From an uncultured Lachnospiraceae bacterium (GTDB taxonomy: Bacteria > Bacillota > Clostridia > Lachnospirales > Lachnospiraceae): 24,000 nucleotides of DNA. Positions 426 to 13,140 of the stretch are shown here, one piece after another (position 1 is the stretch's first letter; every line of letters starts with the position of its first letter). The stretch spans positions 154,428 to 178,427 of the forward strand of contig CAJUSK010000012.1 of the NCBI GenBank assembly GCA_910589075.1, written 5' to 3'. The notes beneath the pieces are model-generated. The model made no database searches. It worked only from the letters and a program-made list of their open reading frames with translations, and was not told where the DNA came from. The position numbers were made by a program, and so were the translations under genes.

Positions 426-1304
426 TCATTCAATCGGTTTCAGATAGAAGCCGCCATAAAAATCTTCGGACTTAAATGTATTGATGATCACATGGGGATC
501 TGTCTTGTGCATCAGTTTTGCAATATCCTGGATCTCATAACTGGAAACAACGGTGTGCAGCAGGCTGATTTTCTTGCCGCTGTATCCGCCGATGCCGTCA
601 ACCCTGGAAACGCCATGCCGGTACTCTGCCACATAGGCTTTGATGATCTCATCCGGTTTGGTCGTCGTAACCTGCATGGTCATACGCTCGTACCGGTGAT
701 AGAAAGAATCAATGGTCTTTGTGGAAATAAACTGGAACAAAATGGAGTAACCTGCATACTCCCAGCCAAACATAAATCCGAAAATGGTAATCAACGCTGC
801 ATTAAATACAAAGACATAACTCCAGATGGACTTGCCTTTTTTATTGGAAATATACAGCGCCACAAAATCCACGCCTCCGGTGGACGCGTTGCCTTTCAAT
901 GCGATCACTGTCATAATGCCGTAAGAGAATCCTCCAAAGATCACGTTCAGCAGAACATCGTCAAATAAAGGCGCAAAATTCAGGATCTTCAGAAAAAAGC
1001 TGGCAAAAAATACTTGTAACAGTGAGAAAAAGGTAAAGCGTTTGCTGATACTTTTACTGCACAATATAGCTACCGGAATGTTCAAAACCAGCATGCCCAC
1101 GGAAACGGAAAACGTAAATCCGAAAAATGTGGAGGTGATCTTTTCAACCAGAATGGCAACCCCCGTAAAACCGCTGGAGAGCAGGTTGATCGGATTCATA
1201 AAAATCTGCAGAATCGCTGCCTGCAAAAATCCTGCCACCAGTACACTCGTAAAGGTAATGACATACCGCACTTTTTCATTGCTTCTTAACGTTCGAAAAT
1301 TCAT
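426..1304 (-). CDS. YitT-family membrane protein (with DUF2179-like C-terminal domain)
   Basis: 292-aa ORF with a multi-TM N-terminal part (GFLQAAILQIFMNPINLLSSGFTGVAILVEKI...) and a soluble C-terminal domain typical of YitT proteins. Its ATG overlaps the cutC stop (ATGA at 1301-1304). Confidence 0.85.
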   Translation of the reverse strand: MNFRTLRSNEKVRYVITFTSVLVAGFLQAAILQIFMNPINLLSSGFTGVAILVEKITSTFFGFTFSVSVGMLVLNIPVAILCSKSISKRFTFFSLLQVFFASFFLKILNFAPLFDDVLLNVIFGGFSYGIMTVIALKGNASTGGVDFVALYISNKKGKSIWSYVFVFNAALITIFGFMFGWEYAGYSILFQFISTKTIDSFYHRYERMTMQVTTTKPDEIIKAYVAEYRHGVSRVDGIGGYSGKKISLLHTVVSSYEIQDIAKLMHKTDPHVIINTFKSEDFYGGFYLKPIE

Positions 1305-2041
1305 ATCGTCTCAACCAGCCTCTTCACCAACGCCTCATCTACGATTTCATATGCATCCCTGTGGGGCTGCTCCGTATAGGAGTAGGATACATCCGGCCCG
1401 TTGGTAGTCGGATCGCAAAGCCATCCCTTACAGGAACTGTGTACCTGCCAGATACCGGTCTTTTCCATCAGTTCTGCGGCATTACCCGCATTGACACCAC
1501 TGCCCGCCAAAATCTGTATCCGGTCGCCGTATTTCTTCTGGAGAGCGGCAATCTGCTCCGCGCCATCCATGGCCTTTGCCTTACCGCCGCTGGTGAGAAC
1601 ACGGCAAATTCCCATATCAATCAGCGCTTCCATGGCGCTGTCCTGATCCTGTACACAATCAAATGCCCGATGGAACACGGCCTCTCCGTGGTATCGGTCT
1701 ATAATCTGAACGATCTTTCGTATCTGTGCCTCATGAAGCCTTGCCTGCGCATCCAGACATCCGAAAGCAATGCCGTCAGCGCCGTTTTTCATCAACAGTT
1801 CCGTATCCTGTTCCATCACTTCAAAGTCTGTATCACTGTAACAAAAGCCTGCCGCCCTGGGCCGTACCATCGCCACCACATTCAGATCCGTATGCTTTTT
1901 TGTCAGAAGCAACGTCCCCACAGACGGCGTCAGTCCCCCCAGATACAGCGCACTGTTCAGTTCGATACGCTTTGCACCTCCGCGATAAGCCGCCAGCGCG
2001 TCTTCATAGCTTCCGCAACAGATTTCCACTATTTTTTCCAT
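1301..2041 (-). CDS. cutC: CutC-family protein (copper homeostasis protein CutC, TIM-barrel)
   Basis: 246-aa ORF. The N-terminus MEKIVEICCGSYEDALAAYRGGAKRIELNSALYLGGLTPS matches the CutC family signature. GAGGGTG RBS lies upstream of the ATG. Confidence 0.85.
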   Translation of the reverse strand: MEKIVEICCGSYEDALAAYRGGAKRIELNSALYLGGLTPSVGTLLLTKKHTDLNVVAMVRPRAAGFCYSDTDFEVMEQDTELLMKNGADGIAFGCLDAQARLHEAQIRKIVQIIDRYHGEAVFHRAFDCVQDQDSAMEALIDMGICRVLTSGGKAKAMDGAEQIAALQKKYGDRIQILAGSGVNAGNAAELMEKTGIWQVHSSCKGWLCDPTTNGPDVSYSYTEQPHRDAYEIVDEALVKRLVETI

Positions 2042-2218
2042 ATTGTCACCCTCACGCCTGAATCATTTTCTTTTGTAACAGTTTCGTCAAACAGAACTGT
2101 TACCTGCAAACTCCATTGATCACTGCCTGCGGCAATGGGAGTTTGCACCCATGAATCGTTCACTTGCGGTCTGCCCGGTCAATGTGCAGACCTGATTTCA
2201 GCTTGTTCTATCGTTCCG

Positions 2219-3313
2219 TTAAATTGTCAGCGCAAAGCTGTAAGCCGGTTTGATGCAGTCCAGTAAAAGCTGTTCCCCGCCATCCACATGGCCCACATAA
2301 TTATAGACATCATCCGCTTTTATCTCGCTCAGTACGATCATCAGTTCTCCCGCATAATGTTTCAGATGATCGTTGACAATGATCACATCGCCTCTGGTAA
2401 ACAGTTCCTTGCCGTTTGGCCGGGGCACAATGGATTTGTCTTTATATTCTACTCTGGGCCAGCTTGATCTGACAACCAGTTCATTGCAGTCGTCCCTGGA
2501 CATATGGATATCGCAAGTGATAATCTCTTTTTCTATCTCAGAAATGCCTTCGGCTGCATTCACTTTGATCATAATTTTGCTCAGGTCGGTTTCCGCCATG
2601 GCTTTCAGCTCCGCCTCACTGGCAAAGGCATTGCCGATGAGGAAATCATTGATCAGCCCCATGGCATTCAAATGTCTGAGCTGCAGGTCAATGGGCAGGT
2701 CACGGTGGATCTCCAGTGTGGGAAGCCCGTCATATACTTCCCAGGGCCCATGGGTATGCGGCTCATGACTGGTCACAAAAGCCGCATTATTCAGTCCCAG
2801 CGGCTGATACCAACTGTTCAGCTCCTGCCACCGGGAAAGTCCCATACCCGTATTTCTCTGGGGATAAAAATTACTGCAAAGGCACATATTGCCGCGGTCT
2901 GCGCCCTTTTTGATCATTACGTCCAGCGCCTGGGTGGAGGAAGCATTGTATTCAATCATAATGCCATAGGGATTTTTGGTGATGGCAATATCCTCGGCAT
3001 CACTAAAATGTTCGTCCAGACGGATGATGTCCACATTCATTTCCGCGAAAACGGACAGATCACGCGGCCCTGCGCCCAGTCTTTTAAAAACAGCTCCGTT
3101 TGTATCCACCGATACTTTGAGACCATTCTCATGAGCCACCTTGCAAAACTCTGTAAAGTCCCGTTTGATCGTCTCTTTATCCTCTTCCACGGACAACAGA
3201 CAGGTAAATACGCGCTGAAAACCGTATTTCCCCGCCAGTTTCATATATTCATAGCATTTTTCTCTGGGTGCCCGCTCCGGGTATACAGAGATGCCGAGTC
3301 TTTTCATACTCAA
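2219..3313 (-). CDS. DUF871 / MupG-like protein (putative 6-phospho-glycosidase, TIM-barrel)
   Basis: 364-aa ORF. The N-terminus MKRLGISVYPE... and overall length match the DUF871 family, whose characterised member is S. aureus MupG (6-phospho-N-acetylmuramidase). GGAGGG RBS lies 8 nt upstream. Confidence 0.75.
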   Translation of the reverse strand: MSMKRLGISVYPERAPREKCYEYMKLAGKYGFQRVFTCLLSVEEDKETIKRDFTEFCKVAHENGLKVSVDTNGAVFKRLGAGPRDLSVFAEMNVDIIRLDEHFSDAEDIAITKNPYGIMIEYNASSTQALDVMIKKGADRGNMCLCSNFYPQRNTGMGLSRWQELNSWYQPLGLNNAAFVTSHEPHTHGPWEVYDGLPTLEIHRDLPIDLQLRHLNAMGLINDFLIGNAFASEAELKAMAETDLSKIMIKVNAAEGISEIEKEIITCDIHMSRDDCNELVVRSSWPRVEYKDKSIVPRPNGKELFTRGDVIIVNDHLKHYAGELMIVLSEIKADDVYNYVGHVDGGEQLLLDCIKPAYSFALTI

Positions 3314-3339
3314 ATCCCTCCTGTTTTATTCCAGCTTTA

Positions 3340-3680
3340 TTCCAGTTCCGCTACATTCCGGACAATACCCCTGCTCTGAAAGGTTTTTCCATCCCCTTCG
3401 TGGCTGTAAAATCCTTTCGGGCATTGTCCGGAATTTCGCTGTTTTTATTCCTGTTTTATTCCTGTTCCGCTACATTCCGGACAATGCCTCTGCTCTGAAA
3501 GGTTTTTCCATCCCCTTCGTGGCTGTAAAATCCTTTCGGGCACTGTCCGGAATTCCGCTGTTTTTTTCCAGTTCCGCTACATTCCGGACAATGCCCCTGC
3601 TCTGAAAGGCTTTTCCATCCCCTTCGTGGCTGTAAAATCCTTTCGGGCACTGTCCGGAATTTCGCTGTTTTTGTTCCTGT
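3340..3680 (-). repeat. Three tandem copies (unit starts 3346, 3465, 3572; periods 119 and 107 bp) of a structured intergenic element. Each carries a 78-nt extended hairpin (3356-3433, 3475-3552, 3582-3659).
   Basis: Direct reading shows near-identical units: TTCCGCTACATTCCGGACAATGCCCCTGCTCTGAAAGGYTTTTCCATCCCCTTCGTGGCTGTAAAATCCTTTCGGGCAYTGTCCGGAAT. Structure: 15-bp outer stem (TTCCGGACAATRCCC / GGGCAYTGTCCGGAA), a 7-nt bulge, an 11-bp inner stem (GAAAGGAUUUU / AAAARCCUUUC in minus sense) and a 19-nt apical loop. The array fills the whole gap between the M20 stop (3683) and the MupG-like start (3313). Confidence 0.9.
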
Positions 3681-3682
3681 TT

Positions 3683-4807
3683 TTAATTCTGCTCCAGGCC
3701 ATCTATGAGCTGATGCAGTGCATAAGCATAGATTTGGGTGTTTTTCTCAATGTCACAAATGCGCATCCACTCGTCAGGCATATGGCCGATGCCTTTCTGG
3801 CCTTTGAAGCTGGGGCCAAAGGGTACGATATTTTTCACCACTTTGGCATAGCTGCCGCCGGTGGTGGTCACTGCACTTCCGTCCTCGTGCATGATTTCCT
3901 CATAGACACGTTCCAGGGTTTTGATCAGGTAGGTATCCTTGTCAAAAAAGACGGGATCAATGTTGGAATCCAGAATGAGGATCATATGCTCGCTGCACAG
4001 TTTCCGCAGGGATTCTGTCATCGTCTCCAGCTTATAAGAAGCCGGATAGCTGGAAACCAGTGTCAGGCCGCAACTGTCCGCATCCTCAAACAGTTCAACC
4101 TTGCGCACTTGGTTTTTTCCGAACTCTTCGTCGGAATAGTCGATGCCCAGGCTGGCTGCCAGATCATTTTTGTTGAGAATAAACCGGTTGACAAAGGTAT
4201 AAAGTTCTTCTGTCCTGTCTTTCGGCAGGCTGTAACGGAATGCCGCCCTGCCGCGCTCCGCGTAGATAACCGGATACTTAACATCGGGAGTCCAGCCCAT
4301 CAGGGGATATTTGTGGTCTTTGAAATACCATTTCATATCTTCCATCCCGGTTTCTTCGTTGGTACCGAAAATGATCTTGACACGAATGGGGAATTCATAC
4401 CCCAGATCCATCAATGCCTTTAAGGCATACATACAGCAGAATGTGGGACCCTTATTGTCAAGGACACCTCTTGCATACAGGGTGCCGTCTTTTTCCGTAC
4501 ATACAAAGGGATCCGTCTTCCACACGCCGTCCACATCCACCACATCCAGATGTCCCACACAGGCAATGTAATCTTCCGTGTCGGGGCCGCAGGCTGCAAT
4601 GCCCACCTGATTGCCCACATTCTCGGTCTCGAATCCCAGCCGCCGGGCAATGGCCAGTGCCGCATTGAGGCAGTCTGTCACCCGTTGCCCGTAAGGGTCC
4701 TCCGGTGTGGCTGTATCTTGCCTGGAATCCATACTACAGATTGTTTTGATGTCTTCCACCAGATCCGGAAGCAGCTCACTCACATGGTTTATGATTTTCT
4801 CTTTCAT
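3683..4807 (-). CDS. M20-family metallo-dipeptidase (PepV/Sapep-like, short form)
   Basis: 374-aa ORF with M20 metal/catalytic motifs: GHLDVVD, RGVLDNKGP, GTNEETG and C-terminal GHMPDE. The start is 2 nt after the upstream gene's stop. Confidence 0.8.
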   Translation of the reverse strand: MKEKIINHVSELLPDLVEDIKTICSMDSRQDTATPEDPYGQRVTDCLNAALAIARRLGFETENVGNQVGIAACGPDTEDYIACVGHLDVVDVDGVWKTDPFVCTEKDGTLYARGVLDNKGPTFCCMYALKALMDLGYEFPIRVKIIFGTNEETGMEDMKWYFKDHKYPLMGWTPDVKYPVIYAERGRAAFRYSLPKDRTEELYTFVNRFILNKNDLAASLGIDYSDEEFGKNQVRKVELFEDADSCGLTLVSSYPASYKLETMTESLRKLCSEHMILILDSNIDPVFFDKDTYLIKTLERVYEEIMHEDGSAVTTTGGSYAKVVKNIVPFGPSFKGQKGIGHMPDEWMRICDIEKNTQIYAYALHQLIDGLEQN

Positions 4808-4809
4808 TT

Positions 4810-5763
4810 TTATTCCTCAACCGGTGCCATACGCACGCGCATATATTCTTCCAGCCACTCTTTGGAAGCTTCTTCAAATGTGCAGTGGCCGTCCTCTTCT
4901 CTTGTTACCAGATAGACAATGGGGGGCTGGTCCTGTGTGGCCACGCTGAAGGAAAATCCGCCGATATTGGTAGCACAGCCAAATTCCCCTTTGCAGTTCA
5001 TTGCCACCACCGATAAATCGCCTGCTTCGCCCCGTTTTTCTTTCAGTTTCCGGTCCAGATCGCCAACTGCCTTCTCACATGCCTCCTGGGGTGTCAGTCC
5101 TTCTTTCATCAGACGGACGATCTCATAGGAGATACAGCCTTTCATCAGATCCTCTCCCAGTCCGGTAGCCGTCGCACCACCCACTTCAGAATCCGCATAG
5201 AACCCGGAACCTACGATCGGTGAATCCCCTACACGGCCGCTGCGTTTCATAAACAGGCCGCTGGTGCTGGTAGCCGCTGTCACTGTGCCGGACTGATCCA
5301 GACATACCATGCCCACCGTATCGTGGCCATCATAGGGTTTCAGTTCCTGATCCAGCTCTTTTTTCTTTTTGCGGTAAAAAGCCTTTGCACGGTCAGTCAG
5401 CATTTCCTTTTCCTCGAATTTGCACGCACGGGCGTATTTCTCGGCGCCTGCCCCTACCAGTACATTGTTGACTTTTTCTTCGCTGAGTTTTCTGGCGATG
5501 CTGATGGGGTTTGCAAAATCTTTGATGGCGCCCAGCGCACCCACGCTCATGGTATCACCGTCCATATAGCCGGCATCCAATTCCACGATCTGCTCTTCAT
5601 TGGGCAGCCCGCCATAACCCACTGACTTATAATAAGGGAAGTCCTCCACCGCACGGATGGCAGTCTCGATGGCGCTGCCTGAAGTTTCCCCCTTTTTCAG
5701 CATTTCGTCTGCCAGTTCTATCCCTTCCTTTGCCATCCTCCATGTGGCTATGATTCCATACAT
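4810..5763 (-). CDS. Asparaginase-2 family Ntn hydrolase, glycosylasparaginase-like (N4-(beta-N-acetylglucosaminyl)-L-asparaginase / isoaspartyl peptidase family)
   Basis: 317-aa ORF with N-terminal IIATWRMA, autoprocessing/nucleophile motif GHDTVGMV, and GDSPIVGSGFYAD and GGATATGLGEDLM motifs. GGAGGAA RBS is present. Confidence 0.8.
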   Translation of the reverse strand: MYGIIATWRMAKEGIELADEMLKKGETSGSAIETAIRAVEDFPYYKSVGYGGLPNEEQIVELDAGYMDGDTMSVGALGAIKDFANPISIARKLSEEKVNNVLVGAGAEKYARACKFEEKEMLTDRAKAFYRKKKKELDQELKPYDGHDTVGMVCLDQSGTVTAATSTSGLFMKRSGRVGDSPIVGSGFYADSEVGGATATGLGEDLMKGCISYEIVRLMKEGLTPQEACEKAVGDLDRKLKEKRGEAGDLSVVAMNCKGEFGCATNIGGFSFSVATQDQPPIVYLVTREEDGHCTFEEASKEWLEEYMRVRMAPVEE

Positions 5764-5828
5764 ATCATTTCCTCCTGCCTGATATCATGTTTCCACGGTC
5801 TGCGCAGCAAGTGCGCAGACCTGTATAT

Positions 5829-6902
5829 TTATTTACATTCATTGTTTAATATCCTGTGAAATACCTCATCATCCATGTCCTTTACCAGCTCGCAGATCAG
5901 ACGGATGCAGGCCTCCACATCATCCTCGTGGATCATGCTGTGGTTGGTGTGCATATACCGGATGGGTATGGATAAGGTCATATTGAGGATTCCTTCAAAA
6001 GCCTTGTGTATATTGCCGGAATCCGTACCGCCTTTGTTAAATACCGCATACTGGCAGGGAATATCGTGCTCTTTGCAGATACTTTCCACATACCGCACCA
6101 GTCCTCTGGGCGCTATGGAATTGGAGTCAATCATCGAAAGCACCACACCTTTGCCCAGGCTGCAAATATTATGGTTAGCCGGCGTATCTCCGGCCAATGT
6201 GGTGTCAATGGCGAAGGCAATATCCGGATGCACGGCCTCTGTGGCAGTTCTGGCGCCCCTAAGGCCCGGCTCTTCCTGCACGGTATTGGCCAGGTACAGA
6301 GGGATATGGGCCGTATCTTTCAGCCGCTCTGCAGCCTCTGCCATGATGTAGTTTCCGATTCGATCATCAAAAGCTTTGCAGGAAATATATTTGGGATTGT
6401 TCATCACTTCAAAATGCGCCCAGGGCGCAATCATATCCCCTATAGCAATTCCCATGGAAAGTACTTCTTCCCGGTCTTTCACACCCAGATCCAGATACAC
6501 GTCTTCCATGGAAACAGTCTTGCTGCGAATTTCCTCCGGCAGTCCATGGGTTGCCATGCTGCCCATCAGCGCCGGATATTTCTTTTTATCTTTCGTGACA
6601 ATGGTGTACCACTGCCCCAAAACCATGTGGCTCCACCAGCTTCCCACCGGACGCACCCGGATGAATCCGTTGTCGTCGATGCTCTCCACCATAAAGCCCA
6701 CCTCGTCCATATGGGCGGCAACCATCATCACCGGCCCCCGGGCATCCCTGCATTTGACAGCGACCACGCTGCCCAGTCCATCCTGCATACAGTCGATACC
6801 GAGGCTCTCATACTCTTCTGTCAGGATCCTGCCCACTTCCTGCTCAAAGGAGGAGATCCCGCAGACGGAACATATTTTTTCCAGTCTTTCCAAATTTATC
6901 AT
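5829..6902 (-). CDS. M42-family aminopeptidase (FrvX/YsdC/TET-like), metal ligands intact
   Basis: 357-aa ORF with all expected M42 ligand motifs: AAHMDEVGF, KAFDDRIG, VQEEPGLRGA, AFAIDTT, IRYMHT. Its start overlaps the upstream paralog's stop (6899-6902). Confidence 0.85.
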   Translation of the reverse strand: MINLERLEKICSVCGISSFEQEVGRILTEEYESLGIDCMQDGLGSVVAVKCRDARGPVMMVAAHMDEVGFMVESIDDNGFIRVRPVGSWWSHMVLGQWYTIVTKDKKKYPALMGSMATHGLPEEIRSKTVSMEDVYLDLGVKDREEVLSMGIAIGDMIAPWAHFEVMNNPKYISCKAFDDRIGNYIMAEAAERLKDTAHIPLYLANTVQEEPGLRGARTATEAVHPDIAFAIDTTLAGDTPANHNICSLGKGVVLSMIDSNSIAPRGLVRYVESICKEHDIPCQYAVFNKGGTDSGNIHKAFEGILNMTLSIPIRYMHTNHSMIHEDDVEACIRLICELVKDMDDEVFHRILNNECK

Positions 6903-7921
6903 CTATTGTCACCCAGTCCGAACCCTGCAATTTTTTCAGAATCAATGGTATCCAGATATGCAGCCAGGCTCTCTGTCAATGCGTCCACATCCCCGGCCCT
7001 GCAAATCTCGTTGGCGCTGCCCATATGATCCATGGCTACACCGACACTGATCGCCGGCGTCCCTTTTAATGTCTTATGGATAAAAGAACCGTCATTTCCC
7101 GTAATTCCAAAATAAGGTTTTGTCTCTGTCTTTCCTGCAAAATCATGTAACAGAGACTGTGCGGGAAGCATCTGGCGGTCATAATATCCCAGAATCACGC
7201 CGTCCCCTGTGTTTGCTTTTCTTTTCGCTGTGTCAAACGCTGTCAGGGCAATGGCTGCATCCGGCCGGATTACATAAGTCGCTGTTTTCGTTCCTCTGAA
7301 CCCGATGACAGACTGCGCAATACAGCCCACTGCCAGATGGAAATCAAATTCTGTATCCTTTATCCGTTCCAGCAGTTCCAATGTCACTTCATTAAATATC
7401 CTGGGGAACAGTGCCTTCGACATGATAATCCCGTCTCTCTCACAAAATGCACTGGCATATCCCACCAGATCGCCGGGATGAACGCGTTCTTTCAGTTCTT
7501 CATAAGGAATACCGCAGGTGATAAATAAGTCATCCGCATTTTTCGCCTCACAGGAATCTTCCAGCGTTTTTTTGTCCATACCGATCACACCGTCGATACA
7601 GGTATCCTCTCTCGTCAGAATACGCACACGCTGATGCAGCAGGGAGCTGCATGCCAGATGTTCCAGCGGAATAAAGGAAACAGTCCCTTCCTTCTTCACC
7701 TCTGAAACCATCAGCCCCACTTCGTCCAGAGGGGAAGCGATCATAAAAGTCTGTGCATTTGGATTTTTTGATTTCTTAATCGCAAAGAGCGATCCCAGAC
7801 GGTCACACCGTATCTCATCACATAAGGGTTCATAACTCTCACGGAGTATTTTGGAAATCCCATGCTCCGCGCTGCTGACCCCGAAACTGTTACATAGTTT
7901 TTCTAATCTGCCTGTGTTCAT
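6899..7921 (-). CDS. M42-family paralog with substituted metal-ligand positions (probable non-catalytic subunit)
   Basis: Collinear with the downstream M42 protein (LEKLCNSFGVSSAE vs LEKICSVCGISSFE; PLDEVGLMV vs HMDEVGFMV), but ligand motifs are replaced. Start chosen at ATG 7921 (MNTGRLEKL, aligns with MINLERLEKI; AGGAGAGG RBS). A longer ORF to 7957 is possible but would include a strong hairpin. Confidence 0.7.
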   Translation of the reverse strand: MNTGRLEKLCNSFGVSSAEHGISKILRESYEPLCDEIRCDRLGSLFAIKKSKNPNAQTFMIASPLDEVGLMVSEVKKEGTVSFIPLEHLACSSLLHQRVRILTREDTCIDGVIGMDKKTLEDSCEAKNADDLFITCGIPYEELKERVHPGDLVGYASAFCERDGIIMSKALFPRIFNEVTLELLERIKDTEFDFHLAVGCIAQSVIGFRGTKTATYVIRPDAAIALTAFDTAKRKANTGDGVILGYYDRQMLPAQSLLHDFAGKTETKPYFGITGNDGSFIHKTLKGTPAISVGVAMDHMGSANEICRAGDVDALTESLAAYLDTIDSEKIAGFGLGDNR

Positions 7922-7941
7922 ACCTCTCCTTTTTGAAAAGA

Positions 7942-7982
7942 CCGCCGCAAAATCCATTTTACGAAAAATCCTTTTGCGGCGG
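7942..7982 (-). terminator. Candidate partial terminator/attenuator hairpin between the GrdB-like and M42-like genes
   Basis: 11-bp stem CCGCCGCAAAA / TTTTGCGGCGG with a 19-nt loop. In minus sense it is followed by TCTTTTC. The loop is large and the U-tract is interrupted, so function is uncertain. Confidence 0.3.
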
Positions 7983-8003
7983 CACTTTTAAAATTTTATA
8001 TAC

Positions 8004-8528
8004 TTAATAGCAAACCCGATTGCGGACATTCTCAAGTTCTGCTGACTGCTCTACCATGCATTTCATAAACTCGCACAAATCCGCAAAGCTGTCATTCAAA
8101 CCGGTACCGCCCTTTTTCGGCATTTTCAGTATAGGCGTTTTGTCTTTGAATGCCGCGATGGTATCTCCGTTCTCAACAGACATCATGGCACAAGACTTGA
8201 TATCGGTGTTTTCCAGAATCGAAGTGGAAATCATGGCAGCCATCCGTGCATAATCCGGATAGTTGAAGCAAGGCCCGCACAAAACGAAGTCCGGATTTAC
8301 CTTTTTAGCCATTGCTGTCATCTTTTTCACTACTTCTTCTTCATTGTTCTGAAAATACTCATTGCCACAGTACAGCGTAGCTGCAACCTGCGCTCCGATT
8401 TTTTCAAAATGCGGCTCCAGCATCAGGGAGGAACCAATCCCGCCTTTCACGGCAGTCAGGCCCACGTTCGGATTGGATTTTCCACCGGCCCCTGCCAGAC
8501 CCTGATCAAAAATCAATACAACTTTCAT
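8004..8528 (-). CDS. GrdB N-terminal-domain-like protein (glycine/sarcosine/betaine reductase component B family, short stand-alone form)
   Basis: 174-aa ORF. From memory of GrdB N-termini, MKVVLIFDQGLAGAGGK..., ATLYCGNEYFQNNEEEV and NPDFVLCGPCFNYPDY resemble VVHYINQFFAGIGGEEKAD, VICGDSYFNEN and PDLFIAGPAFNAGRYG. AGGAGG RBS is present. Confidence 0.6.
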   Translation of the reverse strand: MKVVLIFDQGLAGAGGKSNPNVGLTAVKGGIGSSLMLEPHFEKIGAQVAATLYCGNEYFQNNEEEVVKKMTAMAKKVNPDFVLCGPCFNYPDYARMAAMISTSILENTDIKSCAMMSVENGDTIAAFKDKTPILKMPKKGGTGLNDSFADLCEFMKCMVEQSAELENVRNRVCY

Positions 8529-8561
8529 ATTCAGCCTCCTGTTATTTCAGGTGGATTGTCA

Positions 8562-9914
8562 TTAATCCAGTTCCAGATCGTCAAAGGACAGATCATCCAG
8601 TTCATCCGTCTCATTGCCTGCTGCACTTTCTTCCTGCACATATCTCTGATCCAGCAGTTTGAAGAATGGATAATAGATGAGGATATCCACCGCCAGCATC
8701 ACAATCTGGACCACAGAGCCCATGACGGAACCTGTTACCAGGAATCCGGAGAAGATAATCGGACAGGTCCATGGCAACTGGACACCCAGCGTAATCGGCA
8801 TAATCCCCGTTACCGTAGCCAGATAGCCGATAATCGTATTTACAACCGGTGCAAAGATAAACGGAACTGCCATCAATGGGTTCAACACAATCGGCAGACC
8901 AAAAATAAGCGGCTCATTGATACCGAAAATTCCGGCCGGCAGTGACAGTCTGCCCAGAGTTTTCATACGGTTGGACTTTCCAAGGAAGGCCATCATGATA
9001 ACAAGGCCCAGTGTGGAACCGCCGCCACCGAAGTTGCAGAAGAAATCCGAGAAACCTGCAGTGAAGATATTGGTCATTTCCAGACCTGCCTGTGCAGCTT
9101 CATAGTTTTCAACTGTCAGCACTTTATGGATCGGGCTGAAGATCGTATTGGTTACAGCCGGTCCGTTGATACCGAAGAACCAGAACAGTGTGGAGAGGAA
9201 CTGGTAAATTACCTCGAATCCGGACAGTTTGCCCAGACCCACCAGTGGCGTCTGCAGTACTTTGTAAATGAAATAATGTACATATTCGAAGGATGTATGA
9301 TCGAAAATAATACCTACAACAAAGAATATTGTCATCGCTATGGCAGAAGGAATCAGGGAAGCAAACGATTCCATAACCATAGGCGGCACACCGTCGGGCA
9401 AACGGATAATCAATTTCTTCTTAATCGCCCATGCATAAATCTCTACGGACAAAATTGCCGTGAGCATTGCCAGGAACATACCTGCAGTACCCAGGAATGT
9501 AAACTGGAATCCGCTGAAAGATGCCGCTTCTGCTGCCCCTTCCAGTTCCACGAATGTTTTCTGAGGCGTAATAATCAGGAAACATACCATTGCCACCACG
9601 CCGCCGGCGATACGGTTTTCCAGCCCTTTTTCTCTGGCATAACAGTACCCGATACTCAATACGCCGAGGAGTGCCACACAGTCAAATGCTATAGCGGATA
9701 CTCTGCCCAGATATGCGTCCCAGCCTTCTCCGAATATGGAAGTCATCATATTCAGAAAACCTTCCAGCGGGAAGTTGGAAATCAACAGGAAAATCGAACC
9801 TACAATGGTGATCGGAACCGTAACCAAAAAGCCGTCACGGATAGCGATCAGTATCTTGTTCCTGGAGAGCACATTCGCAATGGGCATCAGGATTTTTTCA
9901 AGTTTCTGCATCAT
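8562..9914 (-). CDS. PTS EIIC, lactose/cellobiose (chitobiose) family
   Basis: 450-aa polytopic membrane ORF. The N-terminus MQKLEKILMPIANVLSRNKILIAIRDGF is typical of CelB/ChbC-type EIIC. It has an unusual acidic C-terminal tail (ETDELDDLSFDDLELD). Confidence 0.9.
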   Translation of the reverse strand: MMQKLEKILMPIANVLSRNKILIAIRDGFLVTVPITIVGSIFLLISNFPLEGFLNMMTSIFGEGWDAYLGRVSAIAFDCVALLGVLSIGYCYAREKGLENRIAGGVVAMVCFLIITPQKTFVELEGAAEAASFSGFQFTFLGTAGMFLAMLTAILSVEIYAWAIKKKLIIRLPDGVPPMVMESFASLIPSAIAMTIFFVVGIIFDHTSFEYVHYFIYKVLQTPLVGLGKLSGFEVIYQFLSTLFWFFGINGPAVTNTIFSPIHKVLTVENYEAAQAGLEMTNIFTAGFSDFFCNFGGGGSTLGLVIMMAFLGKSNRMKTLGRLSLPAGIFGINEPLIFGLPIVLNPLMAVPFIFAPVVNTIIGYLATVTGIMPITLGVQLPWTCPIIFSGFLVTGSVMGSVVQIVMLAVDILIYYPFFKLLDQRYVQEESAAGNETDELDDLSFDDLELD

Positions 9915-9917
9915 AAC

Positions 9918-10241
9918 TTATTTTCCTCTACTTTCTTTGTACAGCTTCATCGCTTTCTTTAAAACTCTCTCGCCATCCACATTGCCGTAGTCGGTACTGT
10001 CAATGACCGATACCACATGCTCCTGACCATACTTCTCGTTCACTTTGTCGTAGAGATGTTTTACCTGCGGCCCCAACAAAATCACTTCCGGATTGAACTC
10101 ATTTACGATGTCGTTCATCTGTGCGTCGGAAAATGCCTTGATCTCGATGGGCAGTTCATGCGCATCCGCAGTTTTCTGCATTTTGCTTGCCAGCAAACTG
10201 GTGGACATACCTGCGTTGCAGAATAAATAGAATCTTTTCAT
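9918..10241 (-). CDS. PTS EIIB, lactose/cellobiose family
   Basis: 107-aa ORF with the active-site Cys context FYLFCNAGMSTSLL. AGGAGGAA RBS is present. Confidence 0.9.
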   Translation of the reverse strand: MKRFYLFCNAGMSTSLLASKMQKTADAHELPIEIKAFSDAQMNDIVNEFNPEVILLGPQVKHLYDKVNEKYGQEHVVSVIDSTDYGNVDGERVLKKAMKLYKESRGK

Positions 10242-10260
10242 GGTGTTTTCCTCCTTTCCC

Positions 10261-10569
10261 TCATTTCACCTTTTTATACAGTTCGATCAGTTCCACAGCC
10301 AGTAACTTGATCGTCTCTGCCGCCATCAACTGGTCCTCGGCATGCATGAGCAGGAGACATACTTCTGTCTTCTCTCCGCCTGCCTCTTTTGTGATCAGTT
10401 CCGCATGCTGTTTGTGTCCGTTCAAATAACATGCCTCTCCGTGTTTGATTGCCTCTTCTGCTTTTTCGTAATCTCCCTTTTTTGCAGCTTCCAGAGCAGA
10501 GATATAATCACTCTTTGCCTCCCCTACCGCAGAGATGATCTTAAAACAGATCAGTTCCATTTCTTCCAT
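10261..10569 (-). CDS. PTS EIIA, lactose/cellobiose family
   Basis: 102-aa helical ORF. ISAVGEAKSDYISALEAAKKGDYEKAEEAIKHGEACYLNGHKQHAELI is typical of the LacF/ChbA family, including the phosphorylatable His region. GGAGGAA RBS is present. Confidence 0.9.
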   Translation of the reverse strand: MEEMELICFKIISAVGEAKSDYISALEAAKKGDYEKAEEAIKHGEACYLNGHKQHAELITKEAGGEKTEVCLLLMHAEDQLMAAETIKLLAVELIELYKKVK

Positions 10570-10587
10570 ATTGTCTTCCTCCTTATA

Positions 10588-11187
10588 TTATAATTGTGTA
10601 TAATTTGTTTCGCTCTCTTTGCCACATACCACCTGGCTGTCTGACCAGAGATCATGAACCGCTTTTCCTTTTTTGAATACCATCCAGACAGAAATCAGAA
10701 ATGCCCCGAGCATCAGGTAATTCAGCGCATTTCCAATGGCCCCTGCCGTCAGCATGGTAACCATCTGCGTCGCATACTGGCCCGTCAGCATAAACGAGCT
10801 TTCCAGTATCATAATCCCCACAATCTGCCTGACTGCAAGCCGGCCGGCCGGAAGCGCCCCGCCATCCTCACCGACAATCCGGATATTCATCAACCGCTTT
10901 CCAAATGTCTGGCCCTTCCATATTTTGAGCGGAACCACATAGTAGTAAGCAGCTCCAAACAAGAGTCCAAGCAATCCCGCAAGCCAGCCCCATGGCGCTT
11001 CAAACAGAGTCACATCGGTATTGATTGCCGTTTCACCAGTCTGCATATTCCACAGAATCCCTACCGGGACGGCACTGAATGCCGATCCAAGATACCAGTC
11101 CAGTAAAAAAGCAAATCCCCTTCTGTTCAGCGGAGCCGGTATCACTTTCGGTGCGGCTTTGTCAGTCCTGTTTTTCTTCATATCCAT
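10588..11187 (-). CDS. RDD-family integral membrane protein
   Basis: 199-aa ORF (197 aa if the start is ATG 11181, which has better RBS spacing). It has the RDD-domain pattern NRRGFAFLLDWYL...GQTFGKRLMNIRIV...VHDLWSD and 3-4 predicted TM segments. Confidence 0.7.
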   Translation of the reverse strand: MDMKKNRTDKAAPKVIPAPLNRRGFAFLLDWYLGSAFSAVPVGILWNMQTGETAINTDVTLFEAPWGWLAGLLGLLFGAAYYYVVPLKIWKGQTFGKRLMNIRIVGEDGGALPAGRLAVRQIVGIMILESSFMLTGQYATQMVTMLTAGAIGNALNYLMLGAFLISVWMVFKKGKAVHDLWSDSQVVCGKESETNYTQL

Positions 11188-11193
11188 CCTCTG

Positions 11194-13140
11194 TCATTCT
11201 ATTAAACCCACAAATTCACTCGCTGTTTTTGCCTTCATAATCTTTGACAAAAGAAGCGTGTCATCACTTAAATTACCCAGCCAGTCAAAAAATATTTTCA
11301 GAAGTTCCCGCTCGTCATCCCTGACAGCCAAAAGCAGTACCAGACGCACCTGATACTCTCCCCACTGCACAGGCTTTTTCAATATGGCAATGCCCATCGT
11401 CGACCTGATGGCCGAATAATTCAACGCATGAGGAATCGCATACCCGTAACTGAAGGAGGTAAATGCCATCTTTTCCCTTGCAAATGTGGAATCTTTGAAA
11501 CTTTCTTCCACACGTTCCCCCTCATACAGCCGGTCACACATATAGCTGACCACATCCTGCCAGGTATCGCATTCCAGATTATGAAAATAGTACTCTTCCA
11601 TAATCAGACATTTGATAAAATTATCAAATTCCGTTTTATAATGTCTCTGATCCAGTTCCGTTATCGCCCTGAATATCTTATACTCATCGCTGGTGTTCAC
11701 AAACATACTGATGGAAATCATCGGTATATCCAGCTTGTGGGAAAGGGGGATTGTCGAAATAATCAGATCCGGATGGAGACTCTCAATGACTGACGCCTCG
11801 TAATATTTCAATATCCCGTCGATTACAATCCGTTCTCCAAAACGTTCCAGTATCTTATCACTGCACGCCCCTGTGAGGGTACTGCTGTTGGGCTGGATCA
11901 GTACCACATGATAAAAGTACTTGATATTCAGCCGGTCATACGCCGCACCCAGATGGATTGCCAAAAAACCGATCTCATCTTCCGAAACAGAACTGCCCGT
12001 ATATTCCTTGATCACATGACCGATAAAAACACTCATTTCAAACACAAGCGGGTATGTCTTTTTAATCTCCGCCAGGCAGACATTGGAAACAACCGCCTTA
12101 TAGCGAATCCTCTCCAGAAGATTTTGCAGATGCAGGACAATACCATCCTTGAAAATTATGTCACCGGAAAAATCAATGTCATACCGCAGACGGACCGTAC
12201 TGATAATCTTCAGCATCAGTTCTTCCGCCTGTACCAGATACTCCCCTTTGTTATCGAACAGGGTGCTCCTCTGTCTTCCAATCAAAAGATTGGCAAAGAG
12301 GACCACTTCATTTTCATTCAGTTCAAAACAGAGAGTCGCGGTCACTCTGGCAAAAAATTCCATGGCAATCCTGTATTCCAGTGTATCCCTGATTTCACTC
12401 CGGCATCTGTTTGTTTCCACATAGTTGTAATTCATCATCCGCTGGATGGAAACCCCTACGTGGATCATCAGCATGGGAAAAGTCTCCTCACGCACCCGGT
12501 AGCTGTACTTGCCCAGAATTTCTTCCAGAACATTTTTCACCCTGATCAGATCAAAATTCGGAAACAGTTCATCTATTTTATTGATATTGATAAAATTGCC
12601 TTTGGTTTCGTTGGCAAGCAGATCTTTGTAAACAGAACGCTTGCACTCTTCGCTTCCTCTGATATAAATGTGGCTGTCGGTTCTGACCAGCTCCACACCA
12701 TCGTACTTCTCCAGCATTTCGGAAACTTTTTTCATATCATTTTTGATGGTAAACTCGCTGACATAAATATCATATTGCAAGTCAAAAATATTCAGCTTCC
12801 GGGTACTGAAAAGCAGTTTCTCAATAATATATTTGCACCGTTCTTCCGAAGTCTGCGGAATACTTTCTCTCTGCGGAGCGCTGCCCTGTCCGGAACTGCT
12901 CTTTTCGGATATCTCCTGATTGATCCGATATCCGTAGCGCACGCTGGATTCTATCAGCCCACTGCACTCCTTTCTCAGCATTTCCATATCGTTGCGAATG
13001 GTGCGATCCGAAACACTCAGCATTGTGGATAACTCTTTTCCGGTGATCCAACCCTTTTTCTCGTTTAAAATCTCAAGGATTCTTTTCTGTCTCGCTTGCA
13101 TGTGTCTATTATACATGATATGTTTCCCGATTTTTTCCAT
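11194..13140 (-). CDS. PRD-domain transcriptional regulator of the LicR/MtlR/BglG class (HTH + 2 PRD + EIIB-like + EIIA-Mtl/Fru-like domains)
   Basis: 648-aa ORF with an N-terminal HTH (RQKRILEILNEKKGWITGKELSTMLSVSDRTIRNDMEML) and PRD His contexts (MLMIHVGVSIQR, FLAIHLGAAYDR). The C-terminal EIIA-type-2 motif is GYAIPHA. The stop is 6 nt before the RDD gene. Confidence 0.85.
   Translation of the reverse strand: MEKIGKHIMYNRHMQARQKRILEILNEKKGWITGKELSTMLSVSDRTIRNDMEMLRKECSGLIESSVRYGYRINQEISEKSSSGQGSAPQRESIPQTSEERCKYIIEKLLFSTRKLNIFDLQYDIYVSEFTIKNDMKKVSEMLEKYDGVELVRTDSHIYIRGSEECKRSVYKDLLANETKGNFININKIDELFPNFDLIRVKNVLEEILGKYSYRVREETFPMLMIHVGVSIQRMMNYNYVETNRCRSEIRDTLEYRIAMEFFARVTATLCFELNENEVVLFANLLIGRQRSTLFDNKGEYLVQAEELMLKIISTVRLRYDIDFSGDIIFKDGIVLHLQNLLERIRYKAVVSNVCLAEIKKTYPLVFEMSVFIGHVIKEYTGSSVSEDEIGFLAIHLGAAYDRLNIKYFYHVVLIQPNSSTLTGACSDKILERFGERIVIDGILKYYEASVIESLHPDLIISTIPLSHKLDIPMISISMFVNTSDEYKIFRAITELDQRHYKTEFDNFIKCLIMEEYYFHNLECDTWQDVVSYMCDRLYEGERVEESFKDSTFAREKMAFTSFSYGYAIPHALNYSAIRSTMGIAILKKPVQWGEYQVRLVLLLAVRDDERELLKIFFDWLGNLSDDTLLLSKIMKAKTASEFVGLIE

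Follow-up and report, generated by a model that had tools for sequence, protein, structure and literature searches.

The stretch of 24,000 nucleotides (nt) analysed here, hereafter the window, comes from an uncultured Lachnospiraceae bacterium known from metagenome-assembled genomes and mouse-gut metagenomes (GenBank assembly GCA_910589075.1, contig CAJUSK010000012.1, positions 154,428 to 178,427), and our subject is an array of three tandem palindromic units that lies between two of its genes, one for an M20 peptidase and one, mupG-like, for a protein of the MupG_N/MupG_C type. The array sits inside a string of minus-strand genes, all co-directional, that extends from about 426 to 13140 and encodes in order a PRD/EIIA-type regulator, an RDD protein, the IIA, IIB and IIC components of a phosphotransferase system (PTS), a GrdB-like protein, two M42 peptidases, an Asparaginase_2 protein, the M20 peptidase, the MupG-like protein, CutC and YitT; the operon is that of a PTS transporter together with glycopeptide-degrading enzymes. 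An earlier note, made from the letters of the window, had described the 375 nt between the M20 stop codon and the mupG-like ATG (3308-3682) as three near-identical structured units within one transcription unit, and both the units and the unbroken run of co-directional genes are borne out here. The features of the junction, in the order of the mRNA, are listed below, with bits from a covariance model and energies from RNAfold.

3683-4807, minus strand: M20 peptidase gene
3683..3685, minus strand: M20 stop codon TAA; in element-free lineages M20 reads on and overlaps mupG by ATGA
3669..3682, minus strand: array leader right after the M20 stop, AAACAGGAACAAAA, with one degenerate 11-mer
3568..3671, minus strand: unit 3, first in mRNA order, with flank AAAACAGCGAAA, hairpin 3581-3660 and flank UGUAGCGGAACUGG; 128.8 bits, -44.7 kcal/mol, z -7.2
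3461..3564, minus strand: unit 2, hairpin 3474-3553, whose innermost outer-stem pair is C.A and whose 3543 pair is G-U; 124.3 bits, -41.1 kcal/mol, z -6.3
3443..3464, minus strand: two 11-nt sub-repeats CAGGAAUAAAA that separate unit 2 from unit 1 (Tandem Repeats Finder period 11, repeat families, motif search)
3342..3445, minus strand: unit 1, last in mRNA order, hairpin 3355-3434, with G-U at the 3367 pair; 126.7 bits, -42.7 kcal/mol, z -7.1
3324..3345, minus strand: two 11-nt sub-repeats CUGGAAUAAAG / CUGGAAUAAAA that separate unit 1 from the ribosome-binding site (RBS)
3305..3321, minus strand: mupG-like RBS GGAGGG (3316-3321) and ATG (3305-3307); a 362-aa gene is called here in the relative L001
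2219-3307, minus strand: mupG-like gene, with its start ATG at 3307

Tandem Repeats Finder reports a period-119 array at 3324-3683 (3.1 copies, score 569), and a repeat search returns three 122-nt copies, at 3336, 3455 and 3562, which are 89-96% identical and spaced by 119 and 107 nt, for unit lengths of 107-119 nt; the window has exactly three occurrences of the 19-nt loop, where none is expected. All modules follow one plan, in which constant single-stranded flanks (AAAACAGC... and ...GCGGAACUGG) enclose an imperfect palindrome of about 80-90 nt with 21-nt terminal arms that are 86-90% complementary (for example 3350-3370 with 3419-3439), and GTAG adjoins each hairpin on its 3′ side. The modules are spaced by the 11-nt repeats CAGGAAUAAAA or CUGGAAUAAAG, which resemble module flanks without a palindrome; the CAGGAAUAAAA copies look like 'empty-slot' versions (AACAGGAAY) of these flanks and vary in number among strains, and the 11-mers ahead of the mupG RBS number from 2 to 5 in other strains. 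We note also that the mRNA strand of 3314-3682 (minus sense) is 66% purine.

The hairpin architecture that had been described for each unit is reproduced by RNAfold, which gives in every case an 80-nt extended hairpin with an outer stem of 15-16 bp, a 7-nt bulge on the 3′ side (AGAGCAG), an inner stem GAAAGGAUUUU/AAAA[G/A]CCUUUC with one A.G or A.A mismatch, and a 19-nt apical region. In the mRNA sense none of 200 shuffles folds as well as the native units, whose z-scores lie between -6.3 and -7.2, and the in silico helix of 15-16 bp plus 10-11 bp, stacked over a one-sided bulge, compares with the at least ~20 bp of near-continuous pairing that mark the class of RNase III-type helices. An A-run precedes each hairpin in the mRNA sense (a T-run follows it in the plus sense), as had been pointed out. 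Because no U-tract lies 3′ of the long-unit hairpins in the mRNA sense and no promoter-like or terminator-like site was found on either strand in 3314-3682, we infer that the array would be read through and transcribed as part of the polycistronic mRNA.

Insertion and copy-number variation among relatives

The operons of relatives (numbered L001 and upwards) were retrieved by protein look-up and graded by the identity of their MupG to that of the window. The M20 and mupG genes overlap by 4 nt (ATGA) in L004/L005/L006 and L027, with MupG 88% identical, and in L007/L008 (86%), and they are 2 nt apart in L009-L012 (77%; these include the complete genome CP143548 of Lachnospiraceae bacterium JLR.KK008), as against a gap of 375 nt in the window and L001. 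The element is confined to lineages in which MupG is at least 93% identical and is absent at 88% or below. Because the sister lineages with overlapping M20 and mupG genes have no element, it is on this comparison a recent, lineage-specific insertion and not a conserved regulator of this operon, and the ancestral M20-mupG junction, judged in the same way, is the overlapping one (ATGA). Insertion here would have abolished translational coupling between M20 and mupG, so that mupG would rely on its own GGAGGG site.

The strains and close relatives compared at this junction carry different sets of modules, as follows.

L028: junction of 56 nt with a short hairpin alone (GCAUCUCCC-loop-GGGAGAUGC)
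L013, L029, L030, L035: the L028-type short hairpin and one long unit
L014-16, L018, L020, L032, L033, L036-39: one long unit
L031: two long units, mutually identical, with a private single-nucleotide change in the loop (GAAG to GAGG) in both
L034: at least two long units
Window, L001: three long units

Since both units of L031 share a private loop change, the duplication in L031 is, by these sequences, independent of that in the window. L028 and L029 encode an identical MupG protein, and what separates their junctions is a segment of 109 nt with the 10-nt direct repeat GCGGAACTGG at its borders; examined for a target-site duplication, this pair of empty and filled junctions fits deletion or duplication between direct repeats as well as it fits an insertion. 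Short and long hairpins occupy one and the same slot, between AAAACAGC and GCGGAACUGG (the short-hairpin module, terminator-like on the antisense strand, is at 2951-2974 in L028 and 4666-4689 in L013), a remnant AAAAGCGGAAC is retained in some strains, and the contigs L017 and L019 begin inside the array, where their assemblies break. Variation of this kind, as far as these junctions reveal it, is what a repeat shows when recombination or slippage between short direct repeats makes it grow and shrink, and gain and loss of modules and 11-mers by that route would produce strains with 0, 1, 2 or 3 long hairpins. Three units is the property of one strain, others having 1 or 2 and a close lineage none, and because unit number differs between strains an obligate form of the triplicate ligand- or protein-binding RNA that the earlier note had considered is unlikely.

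We read the array, with moderate confidence, as a single-locus, lineage-specific, variable-number palindromic repeat at a former ATGA junction, co-transcribed with the genes around it and possibly having a role in the stability or processing of their mRNA.

Distribution beyond the junction

A different origin would be a dispersed miniature mobile element, of the MITE (miniature inverted-repeat transposable element), REP/BIME (repetitive extragenic palindrome/bacterial interspersed mosaic element), ERIC (enterobacterial repetitive intergenic consensus) or Correia-like kind, that inserted by chance and was then duplicated. The 21-nt inverted repeats are what such an element would bring, as are the presence/absence polymorphism with a 10-nt direct repeat (L028 and L029) and the breaks of assemblies at the array, and hairpins with the stem GGTCTGC...GCAGACC recur at other operon junctions (see below). 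An element of this kind should have many copies in its host, but neither the collections searched nor the host sequence gathered showed it at a second location. A scan of JGI metagenomes with the inner-stem pattern returned only this junction, once in each of two host-containing assemblies (ERZ778511 and ERZ778518), together with three chance matches, and three pattern scans of IMG/VR gave chance matches only, which score no more than 15 bits with covariance model R1, as compared with 107-129 for true units. A scan of GTDB genomes with the 19-nt loop found two chance matches, both in coding sequence and with no hairpin context, though it could have missed variant copies because L031 shows that the loop can vary. 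Phage and plasmid sequences contained no blastn match to the element; short-word blastn of one unit against the masked window and the relatives' loci revealed no donor sequence of local origin; and neither a motif search nor covariance model R1 over 288 kb of collected loci detected anything beyond the M20-mupG junction. Modules defined by the flanks ACAGC...GCGGAAC were likewise found in the collected loci at this junction only, plus one match in coding sequence. The element is confined to a single locus in all of the sequence searched, and an origin as a dispersed mobile element, or membership of the REP/BOX/MITE-like family that had been suggested, is very unlikely.

The earlier note recognised no named motif in the units, and Rfam 15 agrees: at gathering thresholds the whole window matches only the T-box family, with no match in the array, and a permissive scan of 3250-3750 gives as its best result Flavo-1, at 21.8 bits against a gathering threshold of 42 and spanning a two-unit junction.

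Other junctions of the operon have hairpins of their own. A second lineage-specific insertion, of 177 nt, separates the mupG-like stop from the start of cutC at 2042-2218 (minus sense), a junction that measures 33 nt in L013, 19 nt in L004 and 2 nt in L009; the insertion contains three to four hairpins (-57.8 kcal/mol, z -4.3), has no Rfam match and opens with CGGAAC, the motif of the 3′ flank of the array units. The GGTCTGC...GCAGACC hairpins occur at two gene junctions in the window, 2168-2192 and 5797-5821 (chance expectation 0), and in the relative L004 between the M42 and Asparaginase genes (about 7785-7815), and the L013 version has a compensatory change from G-C to A-U; they may form a small REP-like family in this clade. 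At the junction of the GrdB-like and M42 genes (7931-7993) there is a hairpin with 22-nt arms (AAAAGUGCCGCCGCAAAA...) that is kept in all relatives down to 77% MupG identity and shows compensatory changes in L009, and which is a genuinely conserved intra-operon hairpin, unlike the M20-mupG array.

Fold, strand sense and constraint

The unit of L013 has diverged from those of the window, and it keeps their architecture with an even better apical stem-loop, the apical A bulge being replaced by a G-C pair that closes a GAAA tetraloop. The sequences of the bulge and the apical loop differ between the two element-bearing lineages, and the mismatch site of the inner stem is an A, G or U depending on the copy. 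Both types of unit fold better in the mRNA sense: the plus-sense energies of the three window units are -35.6 to -36.9 kcal/mol, and the L013-type unit has -43.8 kcal/mol in the sense direction against -29.4 in the antisense, so that the sense fold is more stable by 6-8 kcal/mol in the window and by 14 kcal/mol in the diverged copy.

These energies bear on the possibility that the array faces the other way. In the plus strand the hairpins are closed by G-C pairs and followed by UGUUUUU, and could be intrinsic terminators that stop spurious antisense transcripts from mupG before they reach the upstream genes. Terminator prediction does pick out the short-hairpin module of L028 on the antisense strand (10 bp, 6 G-C pairs, tail TGTTTTTTAT), the GC...GC closure and the plus-sense T-run are common to all modules, and plus-strand promoter-like sites lie within mupG at 2497-2524 and 2982-3009. 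The long units, however, are called as terminators on neither strand, in the plus sense they fold less stably than in the mRNA sense, by 6-14 kcal/mol, A.C mismatches accumulate in the plus sense, the T-run is down to TTTT in L013, and there is no plus-strand gene nearby; we consider antisense-facing termination distinctly unlikely.

The mismatches themselves had been used to argue for selection on an RNA read in the same sense as the genes. The differences between copies are present as described, with an A at 3367 opposite C in copy 1 and a C at 3543 and 3650 opposite A in copies 2 and 3, all of which are G-U pairs in the minus sense, and so is the acknowledged exception, the T at 3489 in copy 2, which makes a G-U in the plus sense and a C.A in the minus sense. 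As a matter of method, the comparison of G-U with A.C pairs points the right way, needed population data to be judged, and with those data is still statistically weak. An alignment of eight distinct unit variants, in which 92% of cells pair, contains three outer-stem pairs in which both partners are altered (G-C to U-A, A-U to G-C, and a series of U-A, U-G and C-G). These are three compensatory pairs, and the alignment has a covariation score of 0.089 as compared with 0.056 in shuffles, 2 of 500 of which reach it, and which is above that of all slid controls; the sequences span two lineages and essentially one phylogenetic split.

Conservation between the window and L013 was set against 4-fold degenerate sites as a neutral benchmark, whose identity is 60-66%. 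The hairpin reaches 75-78% (binomial p = 0.007), and the flanks AAAACAGCGAAA and UGUAGCGGAACU are identical at 22/22 positions (p = 4e-5). The three compensatory pairs, with their U-A, U-G, C-G series, the direction of the G-U-compatible changes and the better sense folds give weak evidence of selection on mRNA-sense pairing, and weak selection may keep both that pairing and the intact flanks.

Several points weigh against reading the array as a co-transcribed repeat with a role in mRNA. The operon's other intergenic stretches are 83-96% identical between the window and L013, and the unit is the least conserved of all, so that the hairpin is the least constrained part and the flanks the most. 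The G-U-compatible changes favour the mRNA strand by 3 events to 1, a statistically insignificant count, and 5/33 pairs are broken in the diverged L013-type unit. The covariation is weak and comes essentially from a single split; sequences that are kin can beat shuffles in such a test with no structure at all, and it is possible for compensatory changes in palindromes to come from hairpin-templated correction at the level of DNA, with no selection on RNA. The contigs with one unit are short-read assemblies, which may collapse tandem repeats; the check for dispersal within the host consists of exact-pattern scans and about 60 kb of host sequence, and the variability of the loop, noted above, counts here as well; and transcription of the array, its processing sites and its effect on mupG are all deduced from sequence.

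Much of this would also be expected of a neutral or selfish DNA palindrome, driven by slippage, whose hairpin is a by-product of its palindromic origin and whose compensatory changes reflect quasi-palindrome correction during replication. The sister lineages do without the element and show no sign of a replacement, the close lineage L028 tolerates zero long units, the numbers of units and 11-mers vary freely, and both the five broken pairs and the low rank of the unit among the intergenic stretches fit a sequence under no constraint. Such a palindrome does not readily explain why the flanks are wholly identical when 4-fold sites are at about 63%, why the hairpin is conserved above those sites, why the diverged copy has retained the architecture and improved its apical stem-loop, or why G-U and purine-purine mismatches fall on the mRNA strand, and we regard it as somewhat unlikely.

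Two further readings concern what the RNA might bind or encode. A ligand- or protein-binding RNA controlling translation of mupG, whether an aptamer in tandem or a GGA-rich sequence that serves a CsrA-like protein as sponge or platform, would fit the conserved flanks and the abundance of GGA, of which there are 27 in the 369 nt of the gap against 15 +/- 2.3 in dinucleotide shuffles, an enrichment inflated because the repeats are not independent; several of these motifs belong to the single-stranded 11-mers that immediately precede the mupG RBS, but many others are buried in stems. A riboswitch or tandem aptamer would moreover be conserved across species with invariant pocket nucleotides, whereas this element has no Rfam match, is present in 0 to 3 copies and is absent from the sister lineages at 88% MupG identity or less, and its bulge and apical loop differ between the two lineages in which it occurs; we find a binding RNA highly improbable.

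Open reading frames (ORFs) of 32 aa with ATG or GTG starts (MPERILQPRRGWKNLSEQGYCPECSGTGIKLE, with a CxxCxGxG motif), and a shorter one of 13 aa, can be read in the mRNA sense, the longer in all three units, and the A/G polymorphism at 3423, 3543 and 3650 preserves a valid start codon. That each unit encodes a peptide is nonetheless scarcely credible: no Shine-Dalgarno sequence precedes the start, which is inside the outer stem, a TAA stands at codon 6 in the L013-type unit, neither unit length, 107 or 119 nt, is divisible by 3, and no gene is called at the array in any assembly. Both the 32-aa ORF (CPECSGTG) and the 13-aa ORF were rejected as coding, for want of an RBS and, in the longer, for the frame broken in L013. 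The longest ORF that spans the array (104 aa, plus strand) had no match in a protein-space search, and therefore no assembly called a similar ORF elsewhere. An attC/integron site and a guanidine-II-like RNA were rejected by inspection, the core-site and ACGR loop motifs being absent.

Three neighbours of the array have features of their own. The GrdB-related protein (174 aa, 8004-8528, minus strand) lacks selenocysteine and scores above the cut-off of NCBIfam NF041545, and its combination with the PTS/peptidase operon is kept across this group of Lachnospiraceae and Erysipelotrichaceae. The M20 protein (374 aa; relatives 374-378 aa) matches the PepV/Sapep dipeptidase models, of 447-466 positions, in two separate stretches, and seems to be without part of the usual middle (lid) region. 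Downstream of yitT, at 12-264 on the minus strand, there is a T-box leader (Rfam RF00230, 114.6 bits), which in L001 precedes an ABC transporter operon (ABC_sub_bind, BPD_transp_2, ABC_tran).

Relation to known repeats and possible role

Among known systems the array invites comparison with the mycobacterial interspersed repetitive units that behave as variable-number tandem repeats (MIRU-VNTR), which are likewise tandem repeats of tens to about 100 bp between operon genes with copy numbers that vary by strain; here a tandem intergenic repeat in a co-directional gene string is present in 0, 1, 2 or 3 copies. The insertion points of MIRUs fall precisely on start codons or on the junctions of coupled genes (PMC12548453), and the ancestral ATGA overlap of the array's junction recalls this. 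MIRUs differ in being mycobacterial, in lying at dozens of loci and in containing an ORF that is translationally coupled to its neighbours, whereas the array, in a Firmicute host, has one known locus, units of 107 and 119 nt, a long palindrome and an internal ORF that is not conserved, being broken by TAA in the L013 type and without a Shine-Dalgarno sequence.

Correia elements, or NEMIS (Neisseria miniature insertion sequences), resemble it in length (about 100-150 bp), in their long inverted repeats and long hairpins and in presence or absence by strain, and they are co-transcribed with their neighbours, as we suppose the array to be. Their hairpins bind RNase III in Neisseria and are cleaved or protected by it (PMC2649163). 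The Correia repeat enclosed elements are, however, dispersed in 100-250 copies with a TA target duplication, IHF sites and promoter-forming ends, and the array is tandem, at one locus and with no sequence similarity to them; any involvement of RNase III with it would be by analogy of fold. REP/BIME and ERIC sequences share with the array the form of imperfect palindromes in transcribed intergenic regions of operons, and REP hairpins stabilise upstream mRNA against 3′-5′ exonucleases. REPs, which are 20-40 nt long and headed by GTAG, come in hundreds of copies and are associated with RAYT (REP-associated tyrosine transposase) proteins, as against a palindrome of 80-90 nt with GTAG on its 3′ side, not at a 5′ head, and no further copies in our searches, and ERIC, of about 126 bp, is dispersed, which the array is not in the sequence searched. 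Structured RNAs of Rfam, including tandem riboswitches, are also strongly folding units in tandem within an mRNA, but the array reaches the threshold of no family, and its conservation ends with one species-level lineage. We would class it as a new single-locus variant within the known class of intra-operon palindromic or variable-number repeats.

If the variable-number repeat has a function, the processing or stabilising of mRNA is probably the most reasonable guess, and the role would be a modest one. The very stable hairpins, with a near-continuous helix of 26-30 bp, are plausible substrates for RNase III or barriers to exonucleases, and would set the relative stability of the upstream and downstream halves of the mRNA. 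A stronger version makes the array a functional RNA cassette, in which the invariant flanks AAAACAGC / GCGGAACUGG are read by a host endoribonuclease or RNA-binding protein around an exchangeable long or short hairpin, and strains tune the distal mupG-cutC-yitT genes relative to the proximal half through the number of modules and GGA-containing 11-mers; we think this unlikely, but it would, if true, be a heritable and rapidly mutable expression dial in the operon of a gut commensal.

What the array means for its host depends on which of these holds. As a variable-number palindromic repeat and nothing more, it would be a useful strain marker for this mouse-gut Lachnospiraceae bacterium and would explain the breaks in assemblies, and little else would change. 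To our knowledge, RNA elements within operons are almost unstudied among uncultured gut commensals. If the hairpins and flanks of the repeat do set mRNA processing or stability, the array would be an example of an insertion that splits a translationally coupled gene pair, and one in which changes of copy number could retune expression inside the operon of an uncultured commensal.

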